Origin: Escherichia coli
Lineage (GTDB): Bacteria; Pseudomonadota; Gammaproteobacteria; Enterobacterales; Enterobacteriaceae
Reading direction: 5' to 3' (one strand)
Length of the DNA stretch: 64,000 nt
Assembly (NCBI RefSeq): GCF_003334305.1
Contig: NZ_QOWS01000017.1
Below the pieces are notes generated by a model. The model worked only from the letters and a program-made list of their open reading frames with translations. It had not been told where the DNA came from and searched no databases. Positions within the stretch are counted from its first letter, which is position 1, and each line of letters starts with the position of its first letter. The translations under genes were made by a program, and so were the position numbers. Positions 2,518-64,000 of this stretch are shown piece after piece.

Positions 2518-3129
<612 letters not shown>

Positions 3130-3878
3130 TTACAGGTGCATTCAGTTTCCTTAGTAAACCGGAAGTAAATAAGATACGTAGTACATATCAATAAAGGTTA
3201 AACGAGATTAAGTTTAATTATTTTCGATTGGGCTTAAATTTATGTTTTTTTCCCGATGAGTGTCAATATGTGAACGGAAAAGGAATTCAATGGTTAAGTC
3301 AATATTTAGAAAAACTGAAAATATTGCTTTTTTGATAAGAAGAAAAAGACATTTGGTTTCATAAGGTTATTGGCAATATAACGTTCAATTCTTACTTGCA
3401 TTTTATATTGGTCAGGAACTTTGCCCTGAAGTGTTAGGAATAGTCTTAATGCGCTGTGTGATGGACTAGTAAAAAAAACAAGTTTTAAGGGTAAGGGATA
3501 GAATATAAAACTATAATGAGCTGTCATTGAAGATGATTTGCCAATCAGTAAGAAATTTTAATGGATTAACATGCCGCACAAAATGGTTATAGGTGTTCAT
3601 TACAATAAGTGATGGAAAATTGAACGGGCGTATGTACGTCATCTGTTCGGTAAGACCCCCAAGAGCCAGATTAAGTGAAGTTAAACGAAGGCTGCCAGCT
3701 GTCACAGGAACGATGGCCTCTTTGTCAGGGCACTGAGTGCAGTTATCTGTGCGCGTTACTCTAACTGGCACTCGAACGTCGGCGATGGGCTTACCGGTGG
3801 ATCAAACTGTTCCTGTGGCGTAAACGTTTTTATGTTAGTACCAACAGATTTACCACATTTATCATCTTAACAGTTTGA

Positions 3879-4112
3879 GTGAAAACGCAGGCTGCGCCGC
3901 AAAGGGAGGAGACTGAGTGGCGTGTTCAGTCTAAAAGAGGGTTGATGCCAGCATACAGGGGCGAAGCTGGTCAACAAGTCAACATTAAGATAATGGAATA
4001 TTCGGAGAGAAACGTCAGGCAGTTGGCCTCAAATGAACAGGAAGAATATATCCCCAGGAAAATTAATGTTGGTGTTATAAACACACCAACATTAATCCGA
4101 TCTGATTATTAA
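3879..4112 (+). CDS. Small hypothetical protein (77 aa), possibly the K-12 ykgL equivalent
   Basis: ORF in the ecpR–ykgO intergenic region; no recognisable domain. Position is the only support. Confidence 0.25.
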   Translation: MKTQAAPQREETEWRVQSKRGLMPAYRGEAGQQVNIKIMEYSERNVRQLASNEQEEYIPRKINVGVINTPTLIRSDY

Positions 4113-4146
4113 TCAGACAAATATCGTTAATTCGTCGAATTTTGAA

Positions 4147-4287
4147 TCAACGTTTTTTCTTACGACCCTGAACGGCCTTAAAACGTGGATTAGATTTACA
4201 AATCACATACAACCGTCCTTTTCGCTTCACAATCTGACAGTCTTGATGGCGTTCTTTTGCGGTACGCAGAGAGTTAAGAACTTTCAT
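4147..4287 (-). CDS. ykgO: Ribosomal protein L36 paralogue (zinc-independent type), 46 aa
   Basis: Hand translation of the minus strand gives [46 protein letters not shown]; its ATG overlaps the ykgM stop (TAATG). Confidence 0.9.
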
Positions 4288-4550
4288 TACGCCCCCTTTT
4301 TCGTGCTAACAAAACGACCAAAACGTTGGGTGAACCGTGCAACATTTCCTTCTGATGCCACTGTTCTCAGCTTCCCTGTATAGAACGGGTGCGATTTCGA
4401 AGAGACATCAATTGTTACGTACGGATACGTTACGCCATCCAGCTCAATCTCACGGTCTGTTTTGATAGTCGAGCCGATTTTAAAGTACTCATCAACACTG
4501 GTGTCGTGGAACACCACAGTACGATACTCAGGATGGATATTGGGCTTCAT
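4287..4550 (-). CDS. ykgM: Ribosomal protein L31 paralogue (type B, zinc-independent), 87 aa
   Basis: [30 protein letters not shown]...; start taken at the second Met of the track ORF to give 87 aa. Confidence 0.9.
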
Positions 4551-4561
4551 CATTTTTACCT

Positions 4562-4579
4562 GTTATGTTATAACATAAC
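4562..4579. promoter_or_regulatory. Zur box (zinc uptake regulator operator) in the ykgM-ykgO promoter
   Basis: Palindrome GTTATGTTATAACATAAC starts 12 bp upstream of the ykgM start codon; matches the Zur consensus core (ATGTTATAACAT). Confidence 0.75.
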
Positions 4580-4912
4580 CATAAAGATACATGCTCATCC
4601 GGATCATTTCAACACCCAATCCCTGTGACTCTTTGTGGATGTGGAATTTTCGCAACGGGGAACTCTGGCATTGTTAGCAGCCATTGGTGACGCTCCCATA
4701 AACGCCTGGATGAGTGATTGATGATGGTTTTGCTGAGAGTATGGATTTTTCGACAATGGAGGTTATCTCCACTTTACTGGCCGATGATTTATCGCAGTAT
4801 GATTGATTACCTGACAGCGTGTATTCCTCTCCCACGGATATAATAATTACTTACAAAAAGGGAGAGGATGCATATTTTAAATATCACTGAAGTGAACAGT
4901 TTATTGCCGTTA

Positions 4913-5014
4913 TTAATAGAAATGGAGAAATAAATAGGCGTATTCTACAATTGCGACAAAAACAACGATATTAATCAGTTTATGACTGATTTGTTGTACT
5001 TTATTCTCTTTCAT
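4913..5014 (-). CDS. ykgR: YkgR small membrane protein, 33 aa
   Basis: Hand translation of the minus strand: MKENKVQQISHKLINIVVFVAIVEYAYLFLHFY followed by a stop; hydrophobic C-terminal half. Confidence 0.7.
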   Translation of the reverse strand: MKENKVQQISHKLINIVVFVAIVEYAYLFLHFY

Positions 5015-6129
5015 TGGTACTTCCTCGCTTTAAAAAAGAGCGCACTTCGTAAGTGCCCTTATATAAATAACGAGTTTGGTCAACCAATTTTTTGACATGT
5101 ATCACAAATTTGAATAGATGTATTACATCGGCTATCTTTTATTGCACCAACGTCATTGATATATGTCGCCTGAAGTCAGTTCCGGGAATGAGTCTGATCT
5201 CAAGACTGGCCCAGTCCGGGCGTTGATTGGCGCTGAGGAGCATATCGCATCTCATCATAATGTCGTATCTCCTGGGGTGTTATACAAGATATCGTTGTTG
5301 GTGACCTGGGAGAGGAATTGAGTTCTATTAAACCGTCAACTATGCCGGATACATACTGGATTACACTGCAGGCACGCCTTACGAGAGAACGTGCCGCAGT
5401 GACGGGTTAATTATCTGAAAGAATTTGTGAGGCTGTATCGGTTACTCATTGATTTGATAGTTTTACTCTCGGGAGAGTAATAGATATTTAATCTATTAAC
5501 GGAAACCAGCCAGTTCCTTTCGATGCCTGAATTTGATTCCATAGTTTATCCGGAATGGTTAATTCATGAATAAGTTGTGTTCTCGTTCATGAGAAGCATA
5601 ACGTAAAGGGAAAAGCTCGATTAGACGGCAGGATTTGTCAGGGGTTATGAACGAAATTCATAAATCTGTTTGAGTGTTGCGATGGGTAGTGCAAGTTCGA
5701 AATCTCCGCAATTTACAGTCCGATGAAGGAAAATGAATATCCATAAAAAATATATCGATTTATTCTGGCGTATATACCTACTTCGACGTATTTCCAATAG
5801 TTGTTAATTAAAGGCAGGCCATTATTATTCACTCTGAATAATGAATTATTCACTGTCCGCAGAGTAAAAAATATAACTTAGGTGTCTATTTAATGACTTG
5901 CACAAAAAGCTAAATTTTCACCCATAAATAAAAATATAATCCCGCGCCCAACCACCTGATGAGTGGCTACAGACACTGGATATATTAGGTGGCGGTGCAC
6001 TTTCTTACATAAAGGTATTTCCTTTTCTGCGGAAAAGGAAATCGGGAAATCCCCGGTTTTTCTGACAAGCAGACGCCATTATTTGTGTCTGCCTATGTTC
6101 GTTAATTCGTTCATCAGGAAATTATCTCA

Positions 6130-9100
6130 ATGTCGCGTTATAAAACAGGTCATAAACAACCACGATTTCGTTATTCAGTTCTGGCCCGCTGCGTGGCGTG
6201 GGCAAATATCTCTGTTCAGGTTCTTTTTCCACTCGCTGTCACCTTTACCCCAGTAATGGCGGCACGTGCGCAGCATGCGGTTCAGCCACGGTTGAGCATG
6301 GGAAATACTACGGTAACTGCTGATAATAACGTGGAGAAAAATGTCGCGTCGTTTGCCGCAAATGCCGGGACATTTTTAAGCAGTCAGCCAGATAGCGATG
6401 CGACACGTAACTTTATTACCGGAATGGCCACAGCTAAAGCTAACCAGGAAATACAGGAGTGGCTCGGGAAATATGGTACTGCGCGCGTCAAACTGAATGT
6501 CGATAAAGATTTCTCGCTGAAGGATTCTTCGCTGGAAATGCTTTATCCGATTTATGATACGCCAACAAATATGTTGTTCACTCAGGGAGCAATACATCGT
6601 ACCGACGATCGTACTCAGTCAAATATTGGTTTTGGCTGGCGTCATTTTTCAGGAAATGACTGGATGGCGGGGGTGAACACCTTTATCGACCATGATTTAT
6701 CCCGTAGTCATACCCGCATTGGTGTTGGTGCGGAATACTGGCGCGATTATCTGAAACTGAGCGCCAATGGTTATATTCGGGCTTCTGGCTGGAAAAAATC
6801 GCCGGATATTGAGGATTATCAGGAACGCCCGGCGAATGGTTGGGATATCCGCGCAGAGGGCTATTTACCTGCCTGGCCGCAGCTTGGCGCAAGCCTGATG
6901 TATGAACAGTATTATGGCGATGAAGTCGGGCTGTTTGGTAAAGATAAGCGCCAGAAAGACCCGCATGCTATTTCTGCCGAGGTGACCTATACGCCAGTGC
7001 CTCTTCTGACACTGAGCGCCGGGCATAAGCAGGGCAAGAGCGGTGAGAATGACACTCGCTTTGGCCTGGAAGTTAATTATCGGATTGGCGAACCTCTGGA
7101 GAAACAACTCGATACAGACAGCATTCGCGAGCGTCGAATGCTGGCAGGCAGCCGCTATGACCTGGTTGAGCGTAATAACAACATCGTTCTTGAGTACCGC
7201 AAATCTGAAGTGATCCGTATTGCTCTGCCTGAGCGTATTGAAGGTAAGGGCGGTCAGACACTTTCCCTGGGGCTTGTGGTCAGCAAAGCAACTCACGGAC
7301 TGAAAAATGTGCAGTGGGAAGCGCCGTCATTACTGGCTGAAGGTGGCAAAATTACCGGTCAGGGTAGTCAGTGGCAAGTAACGCTCCCGGCTTATCGTCC
7401 AGGCAAAGACAATTATTATGCGATTTCTGCGGTTGCCTACGATAACAAAGGCAATGCCTCAAAACGCGTGCAGACAGAGGTGGTCATTACCGGAGCAGGT
7501 ATGAGTGCCGATCGCACGGCGTTAACGCTTGACGGTCAGAGCCGTATTCAAATGCTTGCTAACGGTAATGAGCAAAGACCGCTGGTGCTGTCTCTGCGCG
7601 ACGCCGAGGGCCAGCCAGTCACGGGCATGAAAGATCAGATCAAGACTGAACTAACTTTCAAACCGGCTGGAAATATTGTGACTCGTACCCTGAAGGCCAC
7701 TAAATCACAGGCAAAGCCAACACTGGGTGAGTTCACCGAAACTGAAGCCGGGGTGTATCAGTCTGTCTTTACTACCGGAACGCAGTCAGGTGAGGCAACG
7801 ATTACTGTTAGCGTTGATGGCATGAGCAAAACCGTCACTGCAGAACTGCGGGCCACGATGATGGATGTGGCAAACTCCACCCTGAGCGCTAACGAGCCGT
7901 CAGGTGACGTGGTTGCTGATGGTCAGCAAGCCTATACGTTGACGTTGACTGCGGTGGACTCCGAGGGTAATCCGGTGACGGGAGAAGCCAGCCGCTTGCG
8001 ATTTGTTCCGCAAGACACTAATGGTGTAACCGTTGGTGCCATTTCGGAAATAAAACCAGGCGTTTACAGCGCCACGGTTTCTTCGACCCGTGCCGGAAAC
8101 GTTGTTGTGCGTGCTTTCAGCGAGCAGTATCAGCTGGGCACATTACAACAAACGCTGAAGTTTGTTGCCGGGCCGCTTGATGCAGCACATTCGTCCATCA
8201 CCCTGAATCCTGATAAACCGGTGGTTGGCGGTACAGTTACGGCAATCTGGACGGCAAAAGATGCTAATGACAACCCTGTAACTGGTCTCAATCCGGATGC
8301 ACCGTCATTATCGGGCGCAGCTGCTGTAGGTTCTACGGCATCAGGCTGGACGGATAATGGCGACGGGACCTGGACTGCGCAGATTTCTCTCGGCACTACG
8401 GCGGGTGAATTAGAGGTTATGCCGAAGCTAAATGGACAGGATGCGGCAGCGAATGCGGCTAAAGTAACCGTGGTGGCTGATGCGTTATCTTCAGGCCAGT
8501 CGACAGTGTCTGTAGCCGCAGATCGCGTAAAAGCAGGCGAAAGCACAACCGTGACGCTTATTGCAAAAGATGCACATGGCAACGCTATCAGTGGTCTTTC
8601 CCTGTCGGCAAGCCTGACGGGTGCTGCGTCTGAAGGGGCGACTGTTTCTGGTTGGACCGAAAAAGGTGATGGTTCCTATGTCGCTACGCTGACAACAGGT
8701 GGAAAGACGGGTGAGCTTCTCGTCATGCCGCTATTCAACGGCCAGCCAGCAGCCACCGAAGCCGCGCAGTTGACTGTCATTGCGGGGGAGATGTCATCAG
8801 CGAACTCTACGCTTGTTGCTGACAATAAGGCTCCGACCGTCAAAACGACGACGAAACTCACCTTCACCGTGAAGGATGCGTACGGGAACCTTGTCACCGG
8901 GCTGAAGCCAGATGCACCGCAGTTTAGTGGTGCCGCCAGCACGGGGACAGAGCGACCTTCAACAGGAGACTGGACAGAAACAAGTAATGGGGTCTACGTG
9001 GCGACCTTGACTCTGGGATCTGCCGCGGGCCAGTTGTCTGTGATGCCGCGAGTGAACGGCCAAAATGCCGTTGCTCAGCCACTGGTGCTGAATGTTGCTG

Positions 9101-10383
9101 GTGACGCATCTAAGGCTGAGATTCGTGATATGACGGTGAAGGTTGATAACCAGCTGGCTAATGGACAATCGACTAACCAGGTAACCCTGACCGTTGTGGA
9201 CACCTATGGTAACCCGTTGCAGGGACAAAATGTGACGCTGACTCTGCCGAAAGGTGTGACCAGCAAGACGGGGAATACGGTAACAACCGATGCGGCAGGT
9301 AAAGCCGACATTGAGCTGATGTCAACGGTTGCCGGGGAACACAGCATCACGGCCTCAGTGAATAATGCTCAGAAGACGGTTACGGTGAAATTCAAGGCGG
9401 ATTTCAGTACCGGTCAGGCGAGTCTGGAGGTTGATAGCGCCGCGCCAAAAGTAGCAAACGGCAAAGATGCCTTTACGCTGACGGCGACCGTTGAGGATAA
9501 AAATGGTAACCCTGTTCCAGGGAGCCTGGTGACCTTTAATCTGCCCCGGGGTGTCAAGCCGCTTACAGGCGATAATGTCTGGGTGAAAGCCAACGATGAG
9601 GGGACAGCAGAGTTGCAGGTGGTTTCAGTGACTGCCGGAACGTATGAGATCACGGCATCGGCGGGGAATAGCCAGCCTTCGGATACGCAGACTATAACGT
9701 TTGTAGCCGATAAGGCTACCGCAACCGTCTCCGGTATTGAGGTGATTGGCAACTATGCGCTGGCGGACGGCAAAGCCAAACAAACGTATAAAGTTACGGT
9801 GACTGATGCCAATAACAATTTGGTGAAAGATAGCGACGTGACGCTGACTGCCAGCCCGGCTTCGTTAAACCTGGAACCGAATGGCACTGCGACAACGAAT
9901 GAGCAAGGGCAGGCTATTTTCACCGCTACCACTACTGTTGCGGCGACATACACACTCAAGGCGCAAGTGAGTCAGACCAACGGTCAGGTATCAACGAAAA
10001 CTGCCGAATCTAAATTCGTTGCGGATGATAAAAACGCGGTACTCACCGCATCATCTGATATGCAATCTCTGGTGGCGGATGGGAAATCGACTGCGAAGCT
10101 GGAGGTGACACTGATGTCGGCAAACAACCCCGTTGGCGGGAATATGTGGGTCGACATTCAGACGCCGGAAGGGGTGACGGAGAAGGATTATCAGTTCCTG
10201 CCGTCGAAAAATGACCATTTCGTGAGCGGAAAAATCACGCGTAAATTTAGTACCAGCAAGCCTGGTGTCTATACGTTCACATTTAACGCCCTGACCTATG
10301 GCGGGTACGAAATGAAGCCAGTGACGGTGACCATTACCGCGGTGGATGCCGATACGGCAAAGGACGAGGAGGCGATGAAATAA
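6130..10383 (+). CDS. eaeH: Intimin/invasin-family outer-membrane adhesin EaeH (FdeC), intact 1417-aa form
   Basis: 1417-aa ORF: N-terminal region and beta-barrel segment followed by many Ig-like (Big) repeats with recurring ...TVTAxDAxGNPV... units; lies next to ykgA. Confidence 0.85.
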   Translation: MSRYKTGHKQPRFRYSVLARCVAWANISVQVLFPLAVTFTPVMAARAQHAVQPRLSMGNTTVTADNNVEKNVASFAANAGTFLSSQPDSDATRNFITGMATAKANQEIQEWLGKYGTARVKLNVDKDFSLKDSSLEMLYPIYDTPTNMLFTQGAIHRTDDRTQSNIGFGWRHFSGNDWMAGVNTFIDHDLSRSHTRIGVGAEYWRDYLKLSANGYIRASGWKKSPDIEDYQERPANGWDIRAEGYLPAWPQLGASLMYEQYYGDEVGLFGKDKRQKDPHAISAEVTYTPVPLLTLSAGHKQGKSGENDTRFGLEVNYRIGEPLEKQLDTDSIRERRMLAGSRYDLVERNNNIVLEYRKSEVIRIALPERIEGKGGQTLSLGLVVSKATHGLKNVQWEAPSLLAEGGKITGQGSQWQVTLPAYRPGKDNYYAISAVAYDNKGNASKRVQTEVVITGAGMSADRTALTLDGQSRIQMLANGNEQRPLVLSLRDAEGQPVTGMKDQIKTELTFKPAGNIVTRTLKATKSQAKPTLGEFTETEAGVYQSVFTTGTQSGEATITVSVDGMSKTVTAELRATMMDVANSTLSANEPSGDVVADGQQAYTLTLTAVDSEGNPVTGEASRLRFVPQDTNGVTVGAISEIKPGVYSATVSSTRAGNVVVRAFSEQYQLGTLQQTLKFVAGPLDAAHSSITLNPDKPVVGGTVTAIWTAKDANDNPVTGLNPDAPSLSGAAAVGSTASGWTDNGDGTWTAQISLGTTAGELEVMPKLNGQDAAANAAKVTVVADALSSGQSTVSVAADRVKAGESTTVTLIAKDAHGNAISGLSLSASLTGAASEGATVSGWTEKGDGSYVATLTTGGKTGELLVMPLFNGQPAATEAAQLTVIAGEMSSANSTLVADNKAPTVKTTTKLTFTVKDAYGNLVTGLKPDAPQFSGAASTGTERPSTGDWTETSNGVYVATLTLGSAAGQLSVMPRVNGQNAVAQPLVLNVAGDASKAEIRDMTVKVDNQLANGQSTNQVTLTVVDTYGNPLQGQNVTLTLPKGVTSKTGNTVTTDAAGKADIELMSTVAGEHSITASVNNAQKTVTVKFKADFSTGQASLEVDSAAPKVANGKDAFTLTATVEDKNGNPVPGSLVTFNLPRGVKPLTGDNVWVKANDEGTAELQVVSVTAGTYEITASAGNSQPSDTQTITFVADKATATVSGIEVIGNYALADGKAKQTYKVTVTDANNNLVKDSDVTLTASPASLNLEPNGTATTNEQGQAIFTATTTVAATYTLKAQVSQTNGQVSTKTAESKFVADDKNAVLTASSDMQSLVADGKSTAKLEVTLMSANNPVGGNMWVDIQTPEGVTEKDYQFLPSKNDHFVSGKITRKFSTSKPGVYTFTFNALTYGGYEMKPVTVTITAVDADTAKDEEAMK

Positions 10384-10419
10384 TTTTAAGAATATGAAAG
10401 TAACATTCTAATAAACAAT

Positions 10420-10454
10420 AATGGCGTTGACATCTTCAACGCCATTATTTATTG
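10420..10454. terminator. Bidirectional intrinsic terminator between convergent eaeH and ykgA
   Basis: Stem aatggcgttga (10420-10430) / tcaacgccatt (10436-10446) with loop catct, flanked by A/T-rich runs on both sides. Confidence 0.6.
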
Positions 10455-10503
10455 AATTTCCTGACAGTAGTCTCGTTATAAATTCATTTAGATATAGCGA
10501 AAA

Positions 10504-11394
10504 CTAAACCGGACGAACGGGGATAAAAATTTCGCAAACAACATCATTGCTATCCTTTTCTACGAAATCTTCATTGTAATAAAACCGCTCAATATCACTG
10601 CCGTTCACTCTGGCTAACCCCCTGGCGGGTAATTCCATCAGATAGAGGTTTCGCGCCCATTCAGGGTAGTGCTCCCACTCACCTTCATAGCGGAAAGAGG
10701 CATACAGTCCTCGGTTAATTGTCCACTCTTTCGGCATCTCTGAATCGGTTTGTTTGCATACCGTACCGGCAAAAGTTTCAACCGTGAGCAAATCGACCGA
10801 TTTTGTTGACGGTTCAAACGTGGAGACGAAATAGATATCCGTCTTAAAATTATTCATACATCTGGCTAAATGATGACGTCGCAGTTTGACTTCTTCATCC
10901 GGTGATTTATTCGACACTTCAATGTCATATTTAAATGAGTTGCCAAAAATAGGTGTCTCAGGAAAATTGACTAATCTACACTCCGTCTTTTGCTGTTGAC
11001 GTATTAAAAAAGAAGGGAAGATATTTGCGAGATCCCAATAATCACGGTGGCGGTATTCACGGGGAGAGCAGCCGAATAACTTTTTAAATTCGCGGCTGAA
11101 TGACTGCTGTGAATCAAAATGCAAAGAGAGTGCAATATCAAGCATAGATTTCGCGGTGAGCCGGACAAGAATGGCGGCACGACAAAGCCTTCGTTTGCGA
11201 ATGTATTCTCCCAAAGGCACATGCATGAAATTTCGGAACAGAAGCTGGATGTTGCGTCTGCTGTAGCCAGATTTCTGTGCGATATCTTCGATTGAAATAG
11301 GGTGCTCAAGATTGCACTCAATCCACTTCAGGAGCTGCTGTAGAATCTTCTGCCTGATCATCACATTCTCCATTGATTCTTCGTCATATCGCAC
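10504..11394 (-). CDS. ykgA: AraC-family transcriptional regulator with GyrI-like effector domain (YkgA); intact here
   Basis: N-terminal AraC helix-turn-helix (ISIEDIAQKSGYSRRNIQLLFRNF...FKKLFGCSPREYR) and a C-terminal GyrI-like domain; the start could instead be the Met 7 codons downstream (11373). Confidence 0.75.
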   Translation of the reverse strand: MRYDEESMENVMIRQKILQQLLKWIECNLEHPISIEDIAQKSGYSRRNIQLLFRNFMHVPLGEYIRKRRLCRAAILVRLTAKSMLDIALSLHFDSQQSFSREFKKLFGCSPREYRHRDYWDLANIFPSFLIRQQQKTECRLVNFPETPIFGNSFKYDIEVSNKSPDEEVKLRRHHLARCMNNFKTDIYFVSTFEPSTKSVDLLTVETFAGTVCKQTDSEMPKEWTINRGLYASFRYEGEWEHYPEWARNLYLMELPARGLARVNGSDIERFYYNEDFVEKDSNDVVCEIFIPVRPV

Positions 11395-11594
11395 ATTTTC
11401 GTTATGCCCTGGGCCCTAAGTGTATCAAAAACAGCAAGGGCGAAGGCAAAAGCACTGGTAGCGTCTGCTTCGTTGTCCCCGAAAATAGAGAGGTTTCAGT
11501 CCTGCATTATTAATGAATTTTTTGCATAAGTGATATCAAAATCCACGTACTAATTTGAGGTTACGTTTTAACGTAGACTCATTGTTCATGCCTA

Positions 11595-12479
11595 ATGGAG
11601 GGACTGACAGTGGAATTTTCCGTATTAAGTAACAATCTGAAAATGTCGATGATGGGATTTGGTGTTTTTCAGGTTACCGATAAAAACGTGTGCAAACAGT
11701 CAGTGTTGAACGCTATCCGCACAGGTTATCGACTCATCGACACTGCAGCGGTATACGGTAATGAAGATGCCGTCGGTGAAGCCGTTCGTGAAGCTATATC
11801 TGAAGGTTTATGTACCCGAGATGAGTTATTTATAACGTCTAAATTGTGGGTGCAGGATATGTTGAATCAGGATACGGCAGCAGCAGGTATTGAAGCATCA
11901 TTAAAAAAATCGGGACTAGAGTACTTCGACCTCTATTTATTGCACCAGGCTATGCGCGATTATTTCAGTGCGTGGCGTGCACTCGAAGATGCCTATGAAG
12001 AGGGCAAATTAAAAGCAATTGGGGTTTCCAATTTCTATCCTCATGTTCTGGCGAACTTTTGTGAAACGGTAAGAGTTAAACCGATGGTCAACCAGGTCGA
12101 GTTGCATCCCTATTTTGCCCAACCAGAGGCGCTGGCAACCATGAAGTATTATAACGTGCAGCCTGAAGCATGGGCTCCGTTAGGTGGTGGACGACATAAA
12201 CCCTTTGAAAATAATCTGCTTCAGAGTATTGCAGATGCCCATCAAAAATCGATTTCTCAAGTCATTCTGCGTTGGAATATTCAACGGGGAGTGGTCGTTA
12301 TTCCGAAATCGACACATCAACAGCGTATCGAAGAAAATTTTGCTATCTGGGATTTCTCACTGACAGAGAAAGAAATGGCACAAATTAGTTCGCTTGATTT
12401 GGGTTATGTTGGGGAGTCGGTAAAACATTTTAATCCTGAATTTGTTCGTGGTTGTCTTGCTGTAAAAATACATGATTGA
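11595..12479 (+). CDS. Aldo-keto reductase family oxidoreductase
   Basis: Aldo-keto reductase motifs (GFGVFQV, IDTAAVYGNE, LWVQD, IPKSTHQQRIEENF); the true start may be the internal Met at 11643 (MSMMGFG...). Confidence 0.7.
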   Translation: MEGLTVEFSVLSNNLKMSMMGFGVFQVTDKNVCKQSVLNAIRTGYRLIDTAAVYGNEDAVGEAVREAISEGLCTRDELFITSKLWVQDMLNQDTAAAGIEASLKKSGLEYFDLYLLHQAMRDYFSAWRALEDAYEEGKLKAIGVSNFYPHVLANFCETVRVKPMVNQVELHPYFAQPEALATMKYYNVQPEAWAPLGGGRHKPFENNLLQSIADAHQKSISQVILRWNIQRGVVVIPKSTHQQRIEENFAIWDFSLTEKEMAQISSLDLGYVGESVKHFNPEFVRGCLAVKIHD

Positions 12480-19473: not shown

Positions 19474-19514
19474 CTGTAAATATCCTGGCATTAGTAATGC
19501 CAGGATATTTACAG
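19474..19514. repeat. 41-bp perfect palindrome between convergent ykgG and ykgH
   Basis: ctgtaaatatcctggcatta-g-taatgccaggatatttacag: two 20-nt arms that are exact reverse complements around a single central base. Confidence 0.6.
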
Positions 19515-20278: not shown

Positions 20279-20461
20279 AATATATCCAGAAAATAAAATC
20301 TGCCGCAGATAAGGTTGTATTAATAGCCTGTATCAGGAATGTTCGGGGTAAATATCAGCAAAAAACCAGCATCATGAATACTGGATGTTTATAGCCTGCA
20401 GGCAGCAGTATGCTGCCTGCAGGGGGTATAACAGTCGACAGGGGAACCGACTGCTTTATTC

Positions 20462-32967: not shown

Positions 32968-35900
32968 ATGAATAAAATATATCGGCTAAAGTGGAACAGG
33001 TCCCGTAACTGTTGGAGCGTCTGCTCGGAGCTGGGGAGCAGAGTAAAAGGAAAAAAGTCCCGGGCTGTTTTAATTAGCGCGATAAGTTTATATTCATCTC
33101 TGGTATTCGCCGATGATGTCATCGTAAACCAGGATAAAGCTATTGATTTTGGCAAAGAGAACCAGAGCATCGATTACCGTATTACGGTGACTGACAATGC
33201 CAATCTGGTAATCAATACGACAGATACTTCCCGTCCGCGTCTGACTCTCGCTTCTGGTGGTGGGTTGGATATTACCGGAGGAAAGGTAACAATCAATGGC
33301 CCGCTTAACTTTTTGCTGAAAGGTACGGGGTTCCTGAATGTCTCCAATGCTGGCAGCGAGTTATATGCTGATGATTTGTATGAGTCAAACTCAGGCATGA
33401 GACATGATCAAGGCTATTTTAATGTCTCCAATGGCGGCAAAATTCATGTTAAGGGCACCAGTCGTCTGACTTATACGCAGGGGAATGTAAGCGGCGAAGG
33501 TAGTCAGGTAAATGCAGGGACCTTCTTTATGGGCGTTTACGGCGGATATGGCGGTAATCAGTTCCTGTCGGTTAATAACGGTGGTGAAGTTAATGCTCGT
33601 GAACATATTAGCCTGGGTTATTACGACCAACGTTCTGATACAACATTAGTCGTATCAGATGGAGGTAAAATATCCGCACCGAAAATTAGTTTAAGCACCA
33701 ACTCTGAGTTAGCGTTAGGTGCACAGGAAGGAAGTGCTGCGAAGGCTGCAGGGATTATTGATGCCGAAAAAATTGAGTTTGTGTGGGCAAAGACATCCGA
33801 TAAGAAAATCACCTTAAACCACACGGATAAAAACGCGACTATTTCCGCGGATATTGTCAGTGGCAGCGAGGGCCTGGGCTATATCAATGCGCTCAATGGC
33901 ACGACTTACTTAACCGGTGATAACTCTGCCTTTAGTGGTAAAGTCAAAATTGAGCAAAATGGCGCTTTAGGGATCACCAAAAATATAGGTACAGCAGAGA
34001 TCAACAACCGCGGGAAATTACACCTGAAGGCTGACGATAGCATGACCTTTGCCAATAAGATTTCCGGCAATGGTACAATAAGTATCGACAGTGGGACAGT
34101 GGCACTGACCGGCAATAACTATGCATTCAGCGGATATATTGATGTCGCTTCTGGTGCTGTCGCGGTTATTTCTGAAGACAAGAACATCGGCCGTGCGGAC
34201 CTGGATGTTGATGGCAAACTGCAAATCAATGCCAATAAAGATTGGGTATTTGATAACGATCTTCAAGGTAGAGGTATTGTTGAAATAAACATGGGGAATC
34301 ACGAATTCTCCTTCGATGAGTTTGCTTATACAGACTGGTTCCAGGGTTCACTGGCGTTCCAGAACACGACATTTAACCTGGAAAAGAATGCTGAGTTTCT
34401 GCAGAGAGGCGGGATCACTGCGGGTCAGGGAAGCCTGGTAACAGTGGGTAAGGGCGCTCACTCCATTAGCACTTTGGGATTCTCCGGCGGAACCGTTGAT
34501 TTTGGTGCCCTGACAGCAGGTGCACAGATGACAGAAGGGACGGTCAACGTTAGTAAAACGCTGGATTTGCGCGGCGAGGGTGTGATTCAGGTTTCTGACA
34601 GTGACGTTGTAAGCTCAGTATCTCGTGATATTGACTCTGCGTTATCGCTCACTGAAGTCGATGATGGTAACAGCACCATTAAGTTGGTTGATGCGCAAGG
34701 TGCGGAAGTTCTGGGCGATGCGGGCAATCTGCAATTGCAGGATAAAAATGGGCAAATCCTCTCCAGCAGTGCCCAACGTGATATTCAGCAGAATGGGCAA
34801 AAAGCGGCCGTCGGCACTTACGACTATCGTCTGACGAGTGGGGTAAACAATGACGGTCTGTATATCGGTTACGGCCTGACCCAGCTTGATTTACACGCTA
34901 CCGACAGCGATGCTCTGGTGCTGAGCTCTAACGGTAAAAGCGAGAATGCCGCCGATCTCAGCGCAAAGATTACCGGCAGTGGTGACCTGGCATTCAGCAG
35001 CCAGAAGGGTCAGACCGTATCGCTTTCTAACAAAGACAACGACTATACCGGTGTTACCGATCTGCGCAGTGGGACGCTTTTGTTGAATAACGATAACGTG
35101 TTGGGTAATACCCATGAACTGCGTCTGGCGGCAGAGACTGAACTGGATATGAATGGTCACAGCCAGACCGTGGGCACGCTCAATGGCAGCGCCGATTCAC
35201 TGCTGAGCTTAAATGGCGGCAGTCTGACGGTTACCAACGGGGGCACTTCAACCGGTTCGTTAACGGGGAGCGGAGAGCTGAATATTCAGGGCGGCACGCT
35301 GGACATCGCGGGCGATAACAGCAACCTGACAGCGAATGTGAACATTGCTAATTCGGCTAATGTCCTGGTAAGTCATGCGCAGGGATTGGGTAGCGCAAAC
35401 GTTGAGAACAACGGTACCCTGGCGTTGAATAATAGCGCTGAAAAAAGAGCGGCTGCGTCTGTGAATTACACCCTGGGCGGCAATCTGACCAACAACGGTA
35501 CGCTGATGACCGGAATGTCAGGACAGCAAGCTGGCAATGTGTTAGTGGTGAAGGGGAACTACCACGGTAATAACGGTCAACTAGTAATGAATACGGTACT
35601 GAATGGCGATGACTCAGTAACCGATAAATTGGTTGTCGAGGGCGATACTAGCGGCACGACTGCCGTTACGGTGAATAACGCTGGCGGTACAGGTGCGAAA
35701 ACCCTTAACGGTATCGAACTTATCCATGTAGACGGTAAGTCTGAGGGCGAATTTGTTCAGGCTGGTCGTATCGTTGCGGGGGCGTATGACTACACTCTCG
35801 CGCGTGGACAAGGGGCAAATAGTGGTAACTGGTATCTGACCAGCGGCAGTGATTCTCCTGAACTGCAGCCGGAGCCAGACCCGATGCCGAATCCGGAGCC

Positions 35901-36951
35901 AAACCCGAATCCAGAGCCGAACCCTAACCCGACACCTACGCCGGGTCCGGATCTGAATGTGGATAATGACCTGCGACCGGAGGCGGGTAGCTACATTGCG
36001 AACCTTGCAGCAGCGAATACAATGTTCACCACGCGTCTGCATGAGCGTCTGGGTAATACGTACTATACCGACATGGTGACGGGTGAGCAGAAACAAACCA
36101 CTATGTGGATGCGCCATGAAGGTGGTCATAATAAATGGCGTGATGGCAGCGGCCAGCTGAAAACCCAAAGCAATCGCTATGTTCTGCAACTGGGAGGCGA
36201 TGTCGCGCAGTGGAGCCAAAACGGCAGCGACAGCTGGCATGTTGGGGTCATGGCGGGATATGGCAACAGCGACAGCAAAACCATTTCCTCGCGAACCGGT
36301 TATCGTGCAAAAGCGAGTGTGAACGGATATAGCACCGGCCTCTATGCCACCTGGTATGCCGATGACGAGTCGCGTAATGGCGCGTATCTCGACAGTTGGG
36401 CGCAGTACAGCTGGTTTGATAACACAGTGAAAGGGGATGACTTACAAAGTGAATCCTATAAATCAAAAGGATTTACCGCTTCACTGGAAGCTGGATACAA
36501 ACACAAATTAGCTGAATTTAATGGCAGCCAGGGAACGCGTAATGAATGGTATGTTCAGCCGCAAGCACAGGTTACCTGGATGGGAGTCAAAGCCGATAAG
36601 CACCGCGAAAGCAACGGAACCCTCGTTCATAGCAACGGTGATGGCAATGTTCAAACCCGACTTGGCGTAAAAACCTGGCTGAAGAGCCACCATAAAATGG
36701 ATGACGGTAAATCCCGCGAGTTCCAGCCGTTTGTAGAAGTGAACTGGCTGCATAACAGTAAGGATTTCAGCACCAGTATGGATGGCGTGTCCGTCACTCA
36801 GGATGGAGCCCGAAATATTGCTGAGATAAAAACCGGGGTGGAAGGACAGCTAAATGCCAACCTGAATGTCTGGGGGAATGTGGGCGTTCAGGTTGCCGAT
36901 AGGGGATATAATGACACCTCTGCAATGGTTGGCATTAAGTGGCAATTCTGA
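32968..36951 (+). CDS. ehaA: AIDA-I-type autotransporter adhesin EhaA, 1327 aa
   Basis: Extended signal peptide region (MNKIYRLKWNRSRNCWSVCSELGSR...), long repetitive passenger, Pro-rich linker (PEPDPMPNPEPNPNPEPNPNPTPTPGP) and C-terminal beta-barrel ending ...MVGIKWQF; locus directly after betT. Start placed at the Met 22 codons into the track ORF. Confidence 0.75.
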   Translation: MNKIYRLKWNRSRNCWSVCSELGSRVKGKKSRAVLISAISLYSSLVFADDVIVNQDKAIDFGKENQSIDYRITVTDNANLVINTTDTSRPRLTLASGGGLDITGGKVTINGPLNFLLKGTGFLNVSNAGSELYADDLYESNSGMRHDQGYFNVSNGGKIHVKGTSRLTYTQGNVSGEGSQVNAGTFFMGVYGGYGGNQFLSVNNGGEVNAREHISLGYYDQRSDTTLVVSDGGKISAPKISLSTNSELALGAQEGSAAKAAGIIDAEKIEFVWAKTSDKKITLNHTDKNATISADIVSGSEGLGYINALNGTTYLTGDNSAFSGKVKIEQNGALGITKNIGTAEINNRGKLHLKADDSMTFANKISGNGTISIDSGTVALTGNNYAFSGYIDVASGAVAVISEDKNIGRADLDVDGKLQINANKDWVFDNDLQGRGIVEINMGNHEFSFDEFAYTDWFQGSLAFQNTTFNLEKNAEFLQRGGITAGQGSLVTVGKGAHSISTLGFSGGTVDFGALTAGAQMTEGTVNVSKTLDLRGEGVIQVSDSDVVSSVSRDIDSALSLTEVDDGNSTIKLVDAQGAEVLGDAGNLQLQDKNGQILSSSAQRDIQQNGQKAAVGTYDYRLTSGVNNDGLYIGYGLTQLDLHATDSDALVLSSNGKSENAADLSAKITGSGDLAFSSQKGQTVSLSNKDNDYTGVTDLRSGTLLLNNDNVLGNTHELRLAAETELDMNGHSQTVGTLNGSADSLLSLNGGSLTVTNGGTSTGSLTGSGELNIQGGTLDIAGDNSNLTANVNIANSANVLVSHAQGLGSANVENNGTLALNNSAEKRAAASVNYTLGGNLTNNGTLMTGMSGQQAGNVLVVKGNYHGNNGQLVMNTVLNGDDSVTDKLVVEGDTSGTTAVTVNNAGGTGAKTLNGIELIHVDGKSEGEFVQAGRIVAGAYDYTLARGQGANSGNWYLTSGSDSPELQPEPDPMPNPEPNPNPEPNPNPTPTPGPDLNVDNDLRPEAGSYIANLAAANTMFTTRLHERLGNTYYTDMVTGEQKQTTMWMRHEGGHNKWRDGSGQLKTQSNRYVLQLGGDVAQWSQNGSDSWHVGVMAGYGNSDSKTISSRTGYRAKASVNGYSTGLYATWYADDESRNGAYLDSWAQYSWFDNTVKGDDLQSESYKSKGFTASLEAGYKHKLAEFNGSQGTRNEWYVQPQAQVTWMGVKADKHRESNGTLVHSNGDGNVQTRLGVKTWLKSHHKMDDGKSREFQPFVEVNWLHNSKDFSTSMDGVSVTQDGARNIAEIKTGVEGQLNANLNVWGNVGVQVADRGYNDTSAMVGIKWQF

Positions 36952-36973
36952 TCTGAATAATGAGTAAAAGGAG

Positions 36974-63749: not shown

Positions 63750-63759
63750 GGTATTGTCG

Positions 63760-64000
<241 letters not shown>

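Follow-up and report, generated by a model that had tools for sequence, protein, structure and literature searches.

FdeC, also referred to as EaeH, is a characterised and broadly conserved adhesin of Escherichia coli and a vaccine candidate. It has been described as a protein of 150 kDa with '10 Big domains', the assembly of which is assisted by the translocation and assembly module (TAM) (Heinz et al. 2016, PMC4943183). FdeC orthologues bind collagen and cells and confer protection in urinary tract infection (Nesta et al. 2012, PMC3324786). Adhesion to collagens and epithelial cells and surface display on host contact have been shown in the strains IHE3034 and 536 and in enterohaemorrhagic (EHEC) and avian pathogenic (APEC) E. 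coli. The protein is reported to be silent in standard culture and to be induced by higher temperature and by contact with host cells. In published work fdeC is described as repressed by H-NS and as responding to temperature (in EHEC from 39 °C upward, in APEC at 42 °C); the organism of the H-NS and temperature study was EHEC O157:H7 (Easton et al. 2014, as related by citing papers). In the current analysis we have considered a stretch of 64,000 nucleotides from E. coli (contig NZ_QOWS01000017.1, assembly GCF_003334305.1), referred to below as the window. Sequence comparisons make it almost certain that positions 6130-10383 are an intact chromosomal allele of fdeC (eaeH), encoding a prototypical 'FdeC-type' inverse autotransporter adhesin of the type Ve secretion class. 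The gene is an already known and characterised adhesin in its common intact form, and the identification is right but ordinary. The features of the gene and its product are as follows.

6130 to 10383, plus strand: fdeC (eaeH) coding sequence, 1417 codons plus stop, precursor of about 149.7 kDa (list of open reading frames, annotation in strain H15, collinearity with IHE3034 and O157:H7)
6130 to 6264, plus strand: probable long N-terminal signal peptide (about residues 1-45), a basic n-region followed by the hydrophobic core VAWANISVQVLFPLAVTFTPVMA (reading of the sequence and hydropathy scan, end point inferred)
6355 to 7179, plus strand: inverse-autotransporter beta-barrel (residues 76-350; Pfam IAT_beta, PF11924, E=4e-109, model positions 3-279 of 279)
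7201 to 7539, plus strand: D00-like immunoglobulin (Ig) domain adjoining the barrel (residues 358-470; the intimin fragment 6tqd matches residues 358-474, E=3e-12)
7549 to 10341, plus strand: nine tandem Ig-like domains of the Invasin_D3/Big_1 type (Pfam, scanned in two overlapping halves of the protein)

The gene is a single uninterrupted open reading frame that runs from ATG to stop with no internal stop codon. Identical coordinates are found in E. coli H15 (NZ_CP010178.1), where the Prokaryotic Genome Annotation Pipeline (PGAP) names the gene fdeC and its product 'inverse autotransporter adhesin FdeC' (WP_000092602.1). The two sequences do not differ at all over window positions 4500-11500 (100% identity), and for the window as a whole the identity is about 99.97%; the first 50 kb differ by 13 mismatches and four single-base indels, which move some gene coordinates by one base. 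The source of the window is accordingly H15 or a strain almost identical to it. The gene is flanked by ykgM and ykgR on one side and by a Rob-like regulator and rclCBA on the other in the PGAP annotation, a layout shared with O157:H7 and IHE3034. The wider order, from the ecp operon through ykgMO and ykgR to fdeC, the convergent AraC-type gene and rclCBA, is the same in H15, K-12, O157:H7 and IHE3034. No evidence that contradicts the identification as fdeC turned up.

The domain organisation of the product follows that expected of type Ve proteins, with the PF11924 barrel placed ahead of a C-terminal passenger made up of Big domains of the Ig superfamily. At the N-terminus the hydropathy scan, the only method applied to this segment besides reading of the sequence, finds a basic n-region followed by a hydrophobic segment that spans roughly residues 20-44. 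The barrels of invasin (4e1t) and intimin (4e1s) in the Protein Data Bank match residues 113-357 with E-values of 1e-82 and 1e-70 respectively. The Invasin_D3/Big_1 domains lie at residues 474-573, 579-680, 684-783, 788-885, 891-986, 1000-1090, 1095-1193, 1199-1298 and 1308-1404. The D00-like domain has no Pfam match at E<=0.001 and was recognised by its similarity to intimin, and together with the nine Pfam domains it brings the total of Ig-like domains to ten, which is the count of Big repeats that the first-pass annotation of this stretch had left to domain prediction. The ten domains, and the mass of 149.7 kDa calculated for the protein, agree with the figures of PMC4943183. The crystallised FdeC fragment 4e9l matches residues 595-1008 without gaps (E=1e-242), and no LysM or C-type lectin domain is found by Pfam in the protein even at E<=10. 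The protein therefore has the features of the FdeC type, namely about ten Big domains, a mass of about 150 kDa and neither LysM nor a lectin cap.

Full-length alignments with functional alleles reveal an undamaged gene. The product is 91.4% identical end to end to FdeC of IHE3034 (ECOK1_0290, 1416 residues), with three gap columns that represent a one-residue and a two-residue indel, and 94.8% identical to FdeC of O157:H7 TR01 (1417 residues) with no gaps. Neither alignment contains a frameshift or an internal stop. The first-pass annotation had claimed a complete eaeH/fdeC gene of 1417 codons at this place and had stated that an internal frameshift or a deletion in comparison with functional FdeC would speak against it. 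The reading frame, the PGAP annotation and the end-to-end alignments bear the claim out, and the alignments that it had proposed with K-12 and pathogenic FdeC reveal truncation at codon 292 in K-12 and a full-length match with IHE3034 and O157:H7. The identity of 91.4% to ECOK1_0290 is consistent with the '>91%' reported among E. coli FdeC proteins in PMC3324786.

The divergence increases in a gradient from the barrel, which is 98-99% identical, to the distal domains Ig6-Ig9, which are only 75-85% identical to those of IHE3034. The ratio of nonsynonymous to synonymous divergence (dN/dS, Nei-Gojobori) is 0.05-0.25 in all segments, and dS, about 0.17 in the 5' half, climbs to 0.35-0.48 in the distal part. 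These values indicate that purifying selection acts along the entire gene. Positive selection was considered as the main cause of the divergence of the distal domains and was rejected, since dS rises together with dN and dN/dS does not exceed 0.25. Old or imported alleles, and not positive selection alone, account for the divergence of the distal part.

The laboratory lineages of E. coli carry damaged copies. K-12 (AB1157) matches the window up to position 7005 (codon 292) and again from 10701, with IS3 between, and the alignment identifies the K-12 lesion not as a simple insertion but as the loss of 3,695 bp (window 7006-10700) in association with IS3. An 876-bp 5' fragment of fdeC (codons 1-292) is left beside the insertion sequence (IS), and the convergent gene for the Rob-like regulator of the AraC family has lost its 3' end to the same deletion. 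The first-pass annotation had described the K-12 gene as a short fragment disrupted by an IS element; the short fragment and the adjacent IS3 are indeed found, and the idea of a simple interruption gives way to that of a deletion. Strains of the B lineage (C43(DE3)) have a separate, IS-less deletion of 3,021 bp (window 7087-10107) that leaves the first 319 codons in front of it. At the C43(DE3) junction (4587/4588) the 3,021 bp correspond to 1,007 codons, so that the frame is kept across the junction, and PGAP still calls the gene a truncated pseudogene. In strain L37 fdeC is disrupted by another route, with an IS1 at its 3' end. Both K-12 and B also lack about 0.7 kb (window 11626-12350) of an aldo/keto reductase gene that lies downstream of the Rob-like regulator and is intact in the window (11610-12479).

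By default E. coli, commensals included, carries fdeC intact. Some match to the coding sequence is present in 5073 of 5426 complete E. coli genomes, and in 4571 of the 5426 (84%) at least 80% of it is found at a single place. Nesta et al. (PMC3324786) found the gene in 92-100% across pathotypes and full-length in the commensals HS and SE11, and Goh et al. recorded a complete fdeC in 67% of 126 genomes and in 83% of the ECOR collection. The intact gene had been taken to indicate a non-K-12 strain. Since intactness is normal in the species, it tells only that the strain is not a K-12 or B laboratory strain and is uninformative on pathogenic potential; the deduction holds as far as it goes, and the trait is not distinctive.

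The absence of IS elements from the window, also claimed at first pass, was confirmed by annotation and by search. PGAP annotates no transposase anywhere in the 64 kb, and the four IS types known from the comparison loci (IS3, IS1A, ISEc8 and ISEc35), which together with the annotation made up the search, have no blastn match in the window. Comparison of the window with itself reveals no dispersed repeats; all that it finds is a palindrome of 41 bp and a single short tandem repeat. The palindrome, which is near-perfect and is shared with O157:H7, lies at 19474-19514 in the interval from ykgG to ykgH. The tandem repeat, at 63756-63925 downstream of prpE, consists of two copies of about 80 bp with 85% identity and is possibly of the repetitive extragenic palindrome or bacterial interspersed mosaic element (REP/BIME) type. 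The sole recombinase-like gene of the window is ipbA (fimX/hbiF), a tyrosine DNA invertase gene at 24839-25402 on the minus strand. It is a pseudogene here, with an internal stop according to PGAP on H15 and a longest open reading frame in the window of 24917-25402. It adjoins an apparently intact hyxR-hyxA-hyxB set, and the invertase is intact in IHE3034.

The region upstream of fdeC was examined by alignment of five strains, and the following features were delineated.

5488 to 5579, minus strand: deletion scar, the 3' tail of a gene for an NADH-dependent flavin oxidoreductase (PGAP pseudogene fragment of 90 bp at 5488-5577; junction at 5579)
5580 to 6129, plus strand: conserved fdeC control region and leader (GC content 37.6%, core 5720-5950 31.6%)
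6116 to 6119, plus strand: Shine-Dalgarno (SD) sequence AGGA, 10 nt before the ATG, unchanged in the five strains and in Escherichia sp. E1V33

The interval 5015-6129 (1115 bp) had been put forward as an AT-rich 1.1-kb site of complex regulation. It is AT-rich, its GC content of 39.6% against 49.3% for the whole window placing it in the lowest 6% of windows of equal size. The alignments resolve it as a composite and not one regulatory region, the distal half belonging to ykgR and the deletion scar; the distal part is split off at 5579, and only 5580-6129 is conserved along with fdeC in other lineages. O157:H7 has an additional 4,724 bp between window positions 5579 and 5580, with genes for a flavin oxidoreductase, an alpha/beta hydrolase, a LysR regulator and a hypothetical protein and with a fragment of an aldo/keto reductase gene. 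In IHE3034 the block at this point measures about 6.3 kb and includes two LysR and two aldo/keto reductase genes. The scar is common to the window, K-12 and B. The proximal 550 bp accompany fdeC in every lineage examined, with an identity of 94.0% to IHE3034 and 97.5% to O157:H7. The last 190 bp before the ATG show three differences from IHE3034, a B2 strain, are nearly unchanged in Escherichia sp. E1V33, and have diverged about 10-fold less than the synonymous sites of the adjoining codons (dS 0.17). The proximal 550 bp are a constrained control region, in keeping with what had been put forward at first pass.

The sequence itself shows that the gene is intact and under purifying selection, what its architecture and orthology are, and that no IS element is present; export, adhesion and regulation of FdeC in this strain we infer by analogy with the strains in which they have been studied. 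Transcription would begin within the conserved AT-rich 550 bp. H-NS would silence fdeC, and higher temperature or host contact would relieve the silencing, as in other strains. The precursor would be exported through its N-terminal signal peptide, residues 76-350 would insert into the outer membrane as a beta-barrel with the aid of the beta-barrel assembly machinery (BAM) and TAM, and the passenger of ten Ig-like domains would be threaded outward as a long rod, which would bind collagens and host cells and favour the formation of biofilm.

Some caveats apply to the regulation of the gene. A consensus scan of the region finds eight sigma-70-like sites against 8.2 expected from shuffled sequence, and no promoter stands out by this measure. 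The LysR and reductase genes that accompany fdeC in extraintestinal pathogenic E. coli (ExPEC) as well as EHEC are absent from this lineage, and with that block missing the regulation of fdeC could differ from that of the studied strains. A rival reading takes the reading frame to be intact and the gene to be cryptic in this lineage, an undecayed relic permanently silenced or misregulated after the deletion at 5579 took the LysR neighbours. The missing block of 4.7-6.3 kb, with its one or two LysR genes, is absent here as in K-12 and B, and FdeC is reportedly unexpressed in standard culture, both of which would suit such a relic. We nevertheless regard it as unlikely, because dN/dS remains at 0.05-0.25, the protein lines up with functional alleles over its whole length and the 550-bp control region has been kept and is highly conserved. 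Moreover, many natural isolates combine the same upstream arrangement with an intact fdeC (13 matches cover the whole 7-kb query), and nothing ties the LysR genes to the control of fdeC.

The leader of the gene contains further structure, present either in the RNA leader or in promoter-proximal DNA and located by scanning and folding.

6017 to 6042, 6043 to 6056 and 6069 to 6092, plus strand: three consecutive hairpin-forming palindromes

These palindromes sit 40-110 nt upstream of the fdeC ATG. Their stems are invariant across strains and hence give no covariation signal. The fold of 5990-6150 has a z-score of -2.9, and in both the minimum-energy and the centroid folds a U-rich tract UUUUCUGA (6058-6065) pairs with the SD sequence in a manner that resembles a fourU thermometer. 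In 5,034 E. coli records the identity of the leader is at least 95%, and the one further Escherichia species that was recovered has it almost unchanged; a scan of species-representative genomes with a degenerate N-terminal coding pattern yielded one locus only. The near-invariant leader of about 190 bp, with its three hairpins and SD-pairing U-tract, could be an undescribed element acting after transcription, such as an attenuator or an RNA thermometer, and could add to the published induction by temperature alongside H-NS. Separately, loss of the upstream block in this lineage might rewire the control of fdeC. We hold these proposals to be very doubtful. An RNA thermometer or attenuator is unsupported, as the accessibility of the fdeC SD sequence is ordinary (probability of being unpaired 0.49, rank 32 of 49 among 49 window genes) and barely dependent on temperature, with a predicted shift of only 0.03 from 30 to 42 °C. 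No Rfam family was found in 3000-12000 at E<=0.1.

Two features adjoin the 3' end of the gene.

10417 to 10449, strand not assigned: likely bidirectional terminator of fdeC and the convergent regulator gene, a palindrome with a 14-bp stem and T-runs on both strands (terminator scan of both strands)
10504 to 11361, minus strand: convergent gene for a Rob-like regulator of the AraC/XylS family, at the position of ykgA (PGAP), intact here and truncated in K-12 by the IS3-associated deletion

The convergent regulator scores 195 bits against the NCBIfam model RobA_TF, below its cut-off of 380, and is therefore a paralogue of Rob and not Rob itself. The stretch is rich in adhesin loci. Other intact autotransporter genes of the window are ehaA (32969-36952, plus strand) and hyxB (20461-22758, minus strand), and the pilus genes ecpRAB and part of ecpC are also encoded.

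An additional intact copy of so well known an adhesin adds little beyond its correct annotation. The useful corrections bear on the comparison of fdeC regulation across strains. The intergenic region of about 1.1 kb is a scar fused to a 550-bp control region, and the strains in which the regulation of fdeC was studied (ExPEC and EHEC) keep upstream regulator genes that are missing in this lineage.

A mislabelled inverse autotransporter of another kind (intimin, invasin, YeeJ, IatC, SinH or YchO type) is so improbable as to be effectively refuted: the NCBIfam models of IatC, Ilp, intimin, SinH and YchO do match the beta-barrel region with strong E-values, but only that region aligns, all the scores are far under the curated cut-offs (652 bits against 2400 for IatC, NF040978, and 379.5 against 1400 for intimin, NF033627), and the lack of LysM and C-type lectin domains, the gap-free match of 4e9l and the chromosomal position are those of fdeC.

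Among the known systems, FdeC of the ExPEC strain IHE3034 (ECOK1_0290, PMC3324786, PDB 4E9L) occupies the same locus and has the same architecture, with 1416 residues against 1417 in the window and a barrel that is 98% identical. The two differ in Ig domains 6-9, which are 75-85% identical with a dS of 0.48, and by the two-residue indel, which falls in the C-terminal tail; IHE3034 also keeps, immediately upstream, the block of about 6.3 kb with its reductase, hydrolase and LysR genes that is lost from the window. FdeC/EaeH of O157:H7 resembles the window protein in its 1417 residues and gap-free alignment at 94.8% identity, and its upstream 550 bp are 97.5% identical. Unlike the window, O157:H7 keeps the 4.7-kb upstream block and carries ISEc8 between ykgM and ykgR, and its domains Ig3-Ig6 and Ig8 are 87-90% identical. 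The K-12 pseudogene eaeH (b0297) and the B remnant share with the window the upstream region, the scar and the first 292 (K-12) or 319 (B) codons at 98-99% identity, whereas the lesions that define them, IS3 in place of 7006-10700 in K-12 and the 3,021-bp deletion in B, are both absent from the window. Intimin (EaeA) and the invasin of Yersinia have the same type Ve layout of an N-terminal 12-stranded barrel followed by Ig-like domains. FdeC of the window is distinguished from them by ten Ig domains in place of four or five, and by the lack of a LysM domain and of the C-type-lectin cap that binds the receptor.

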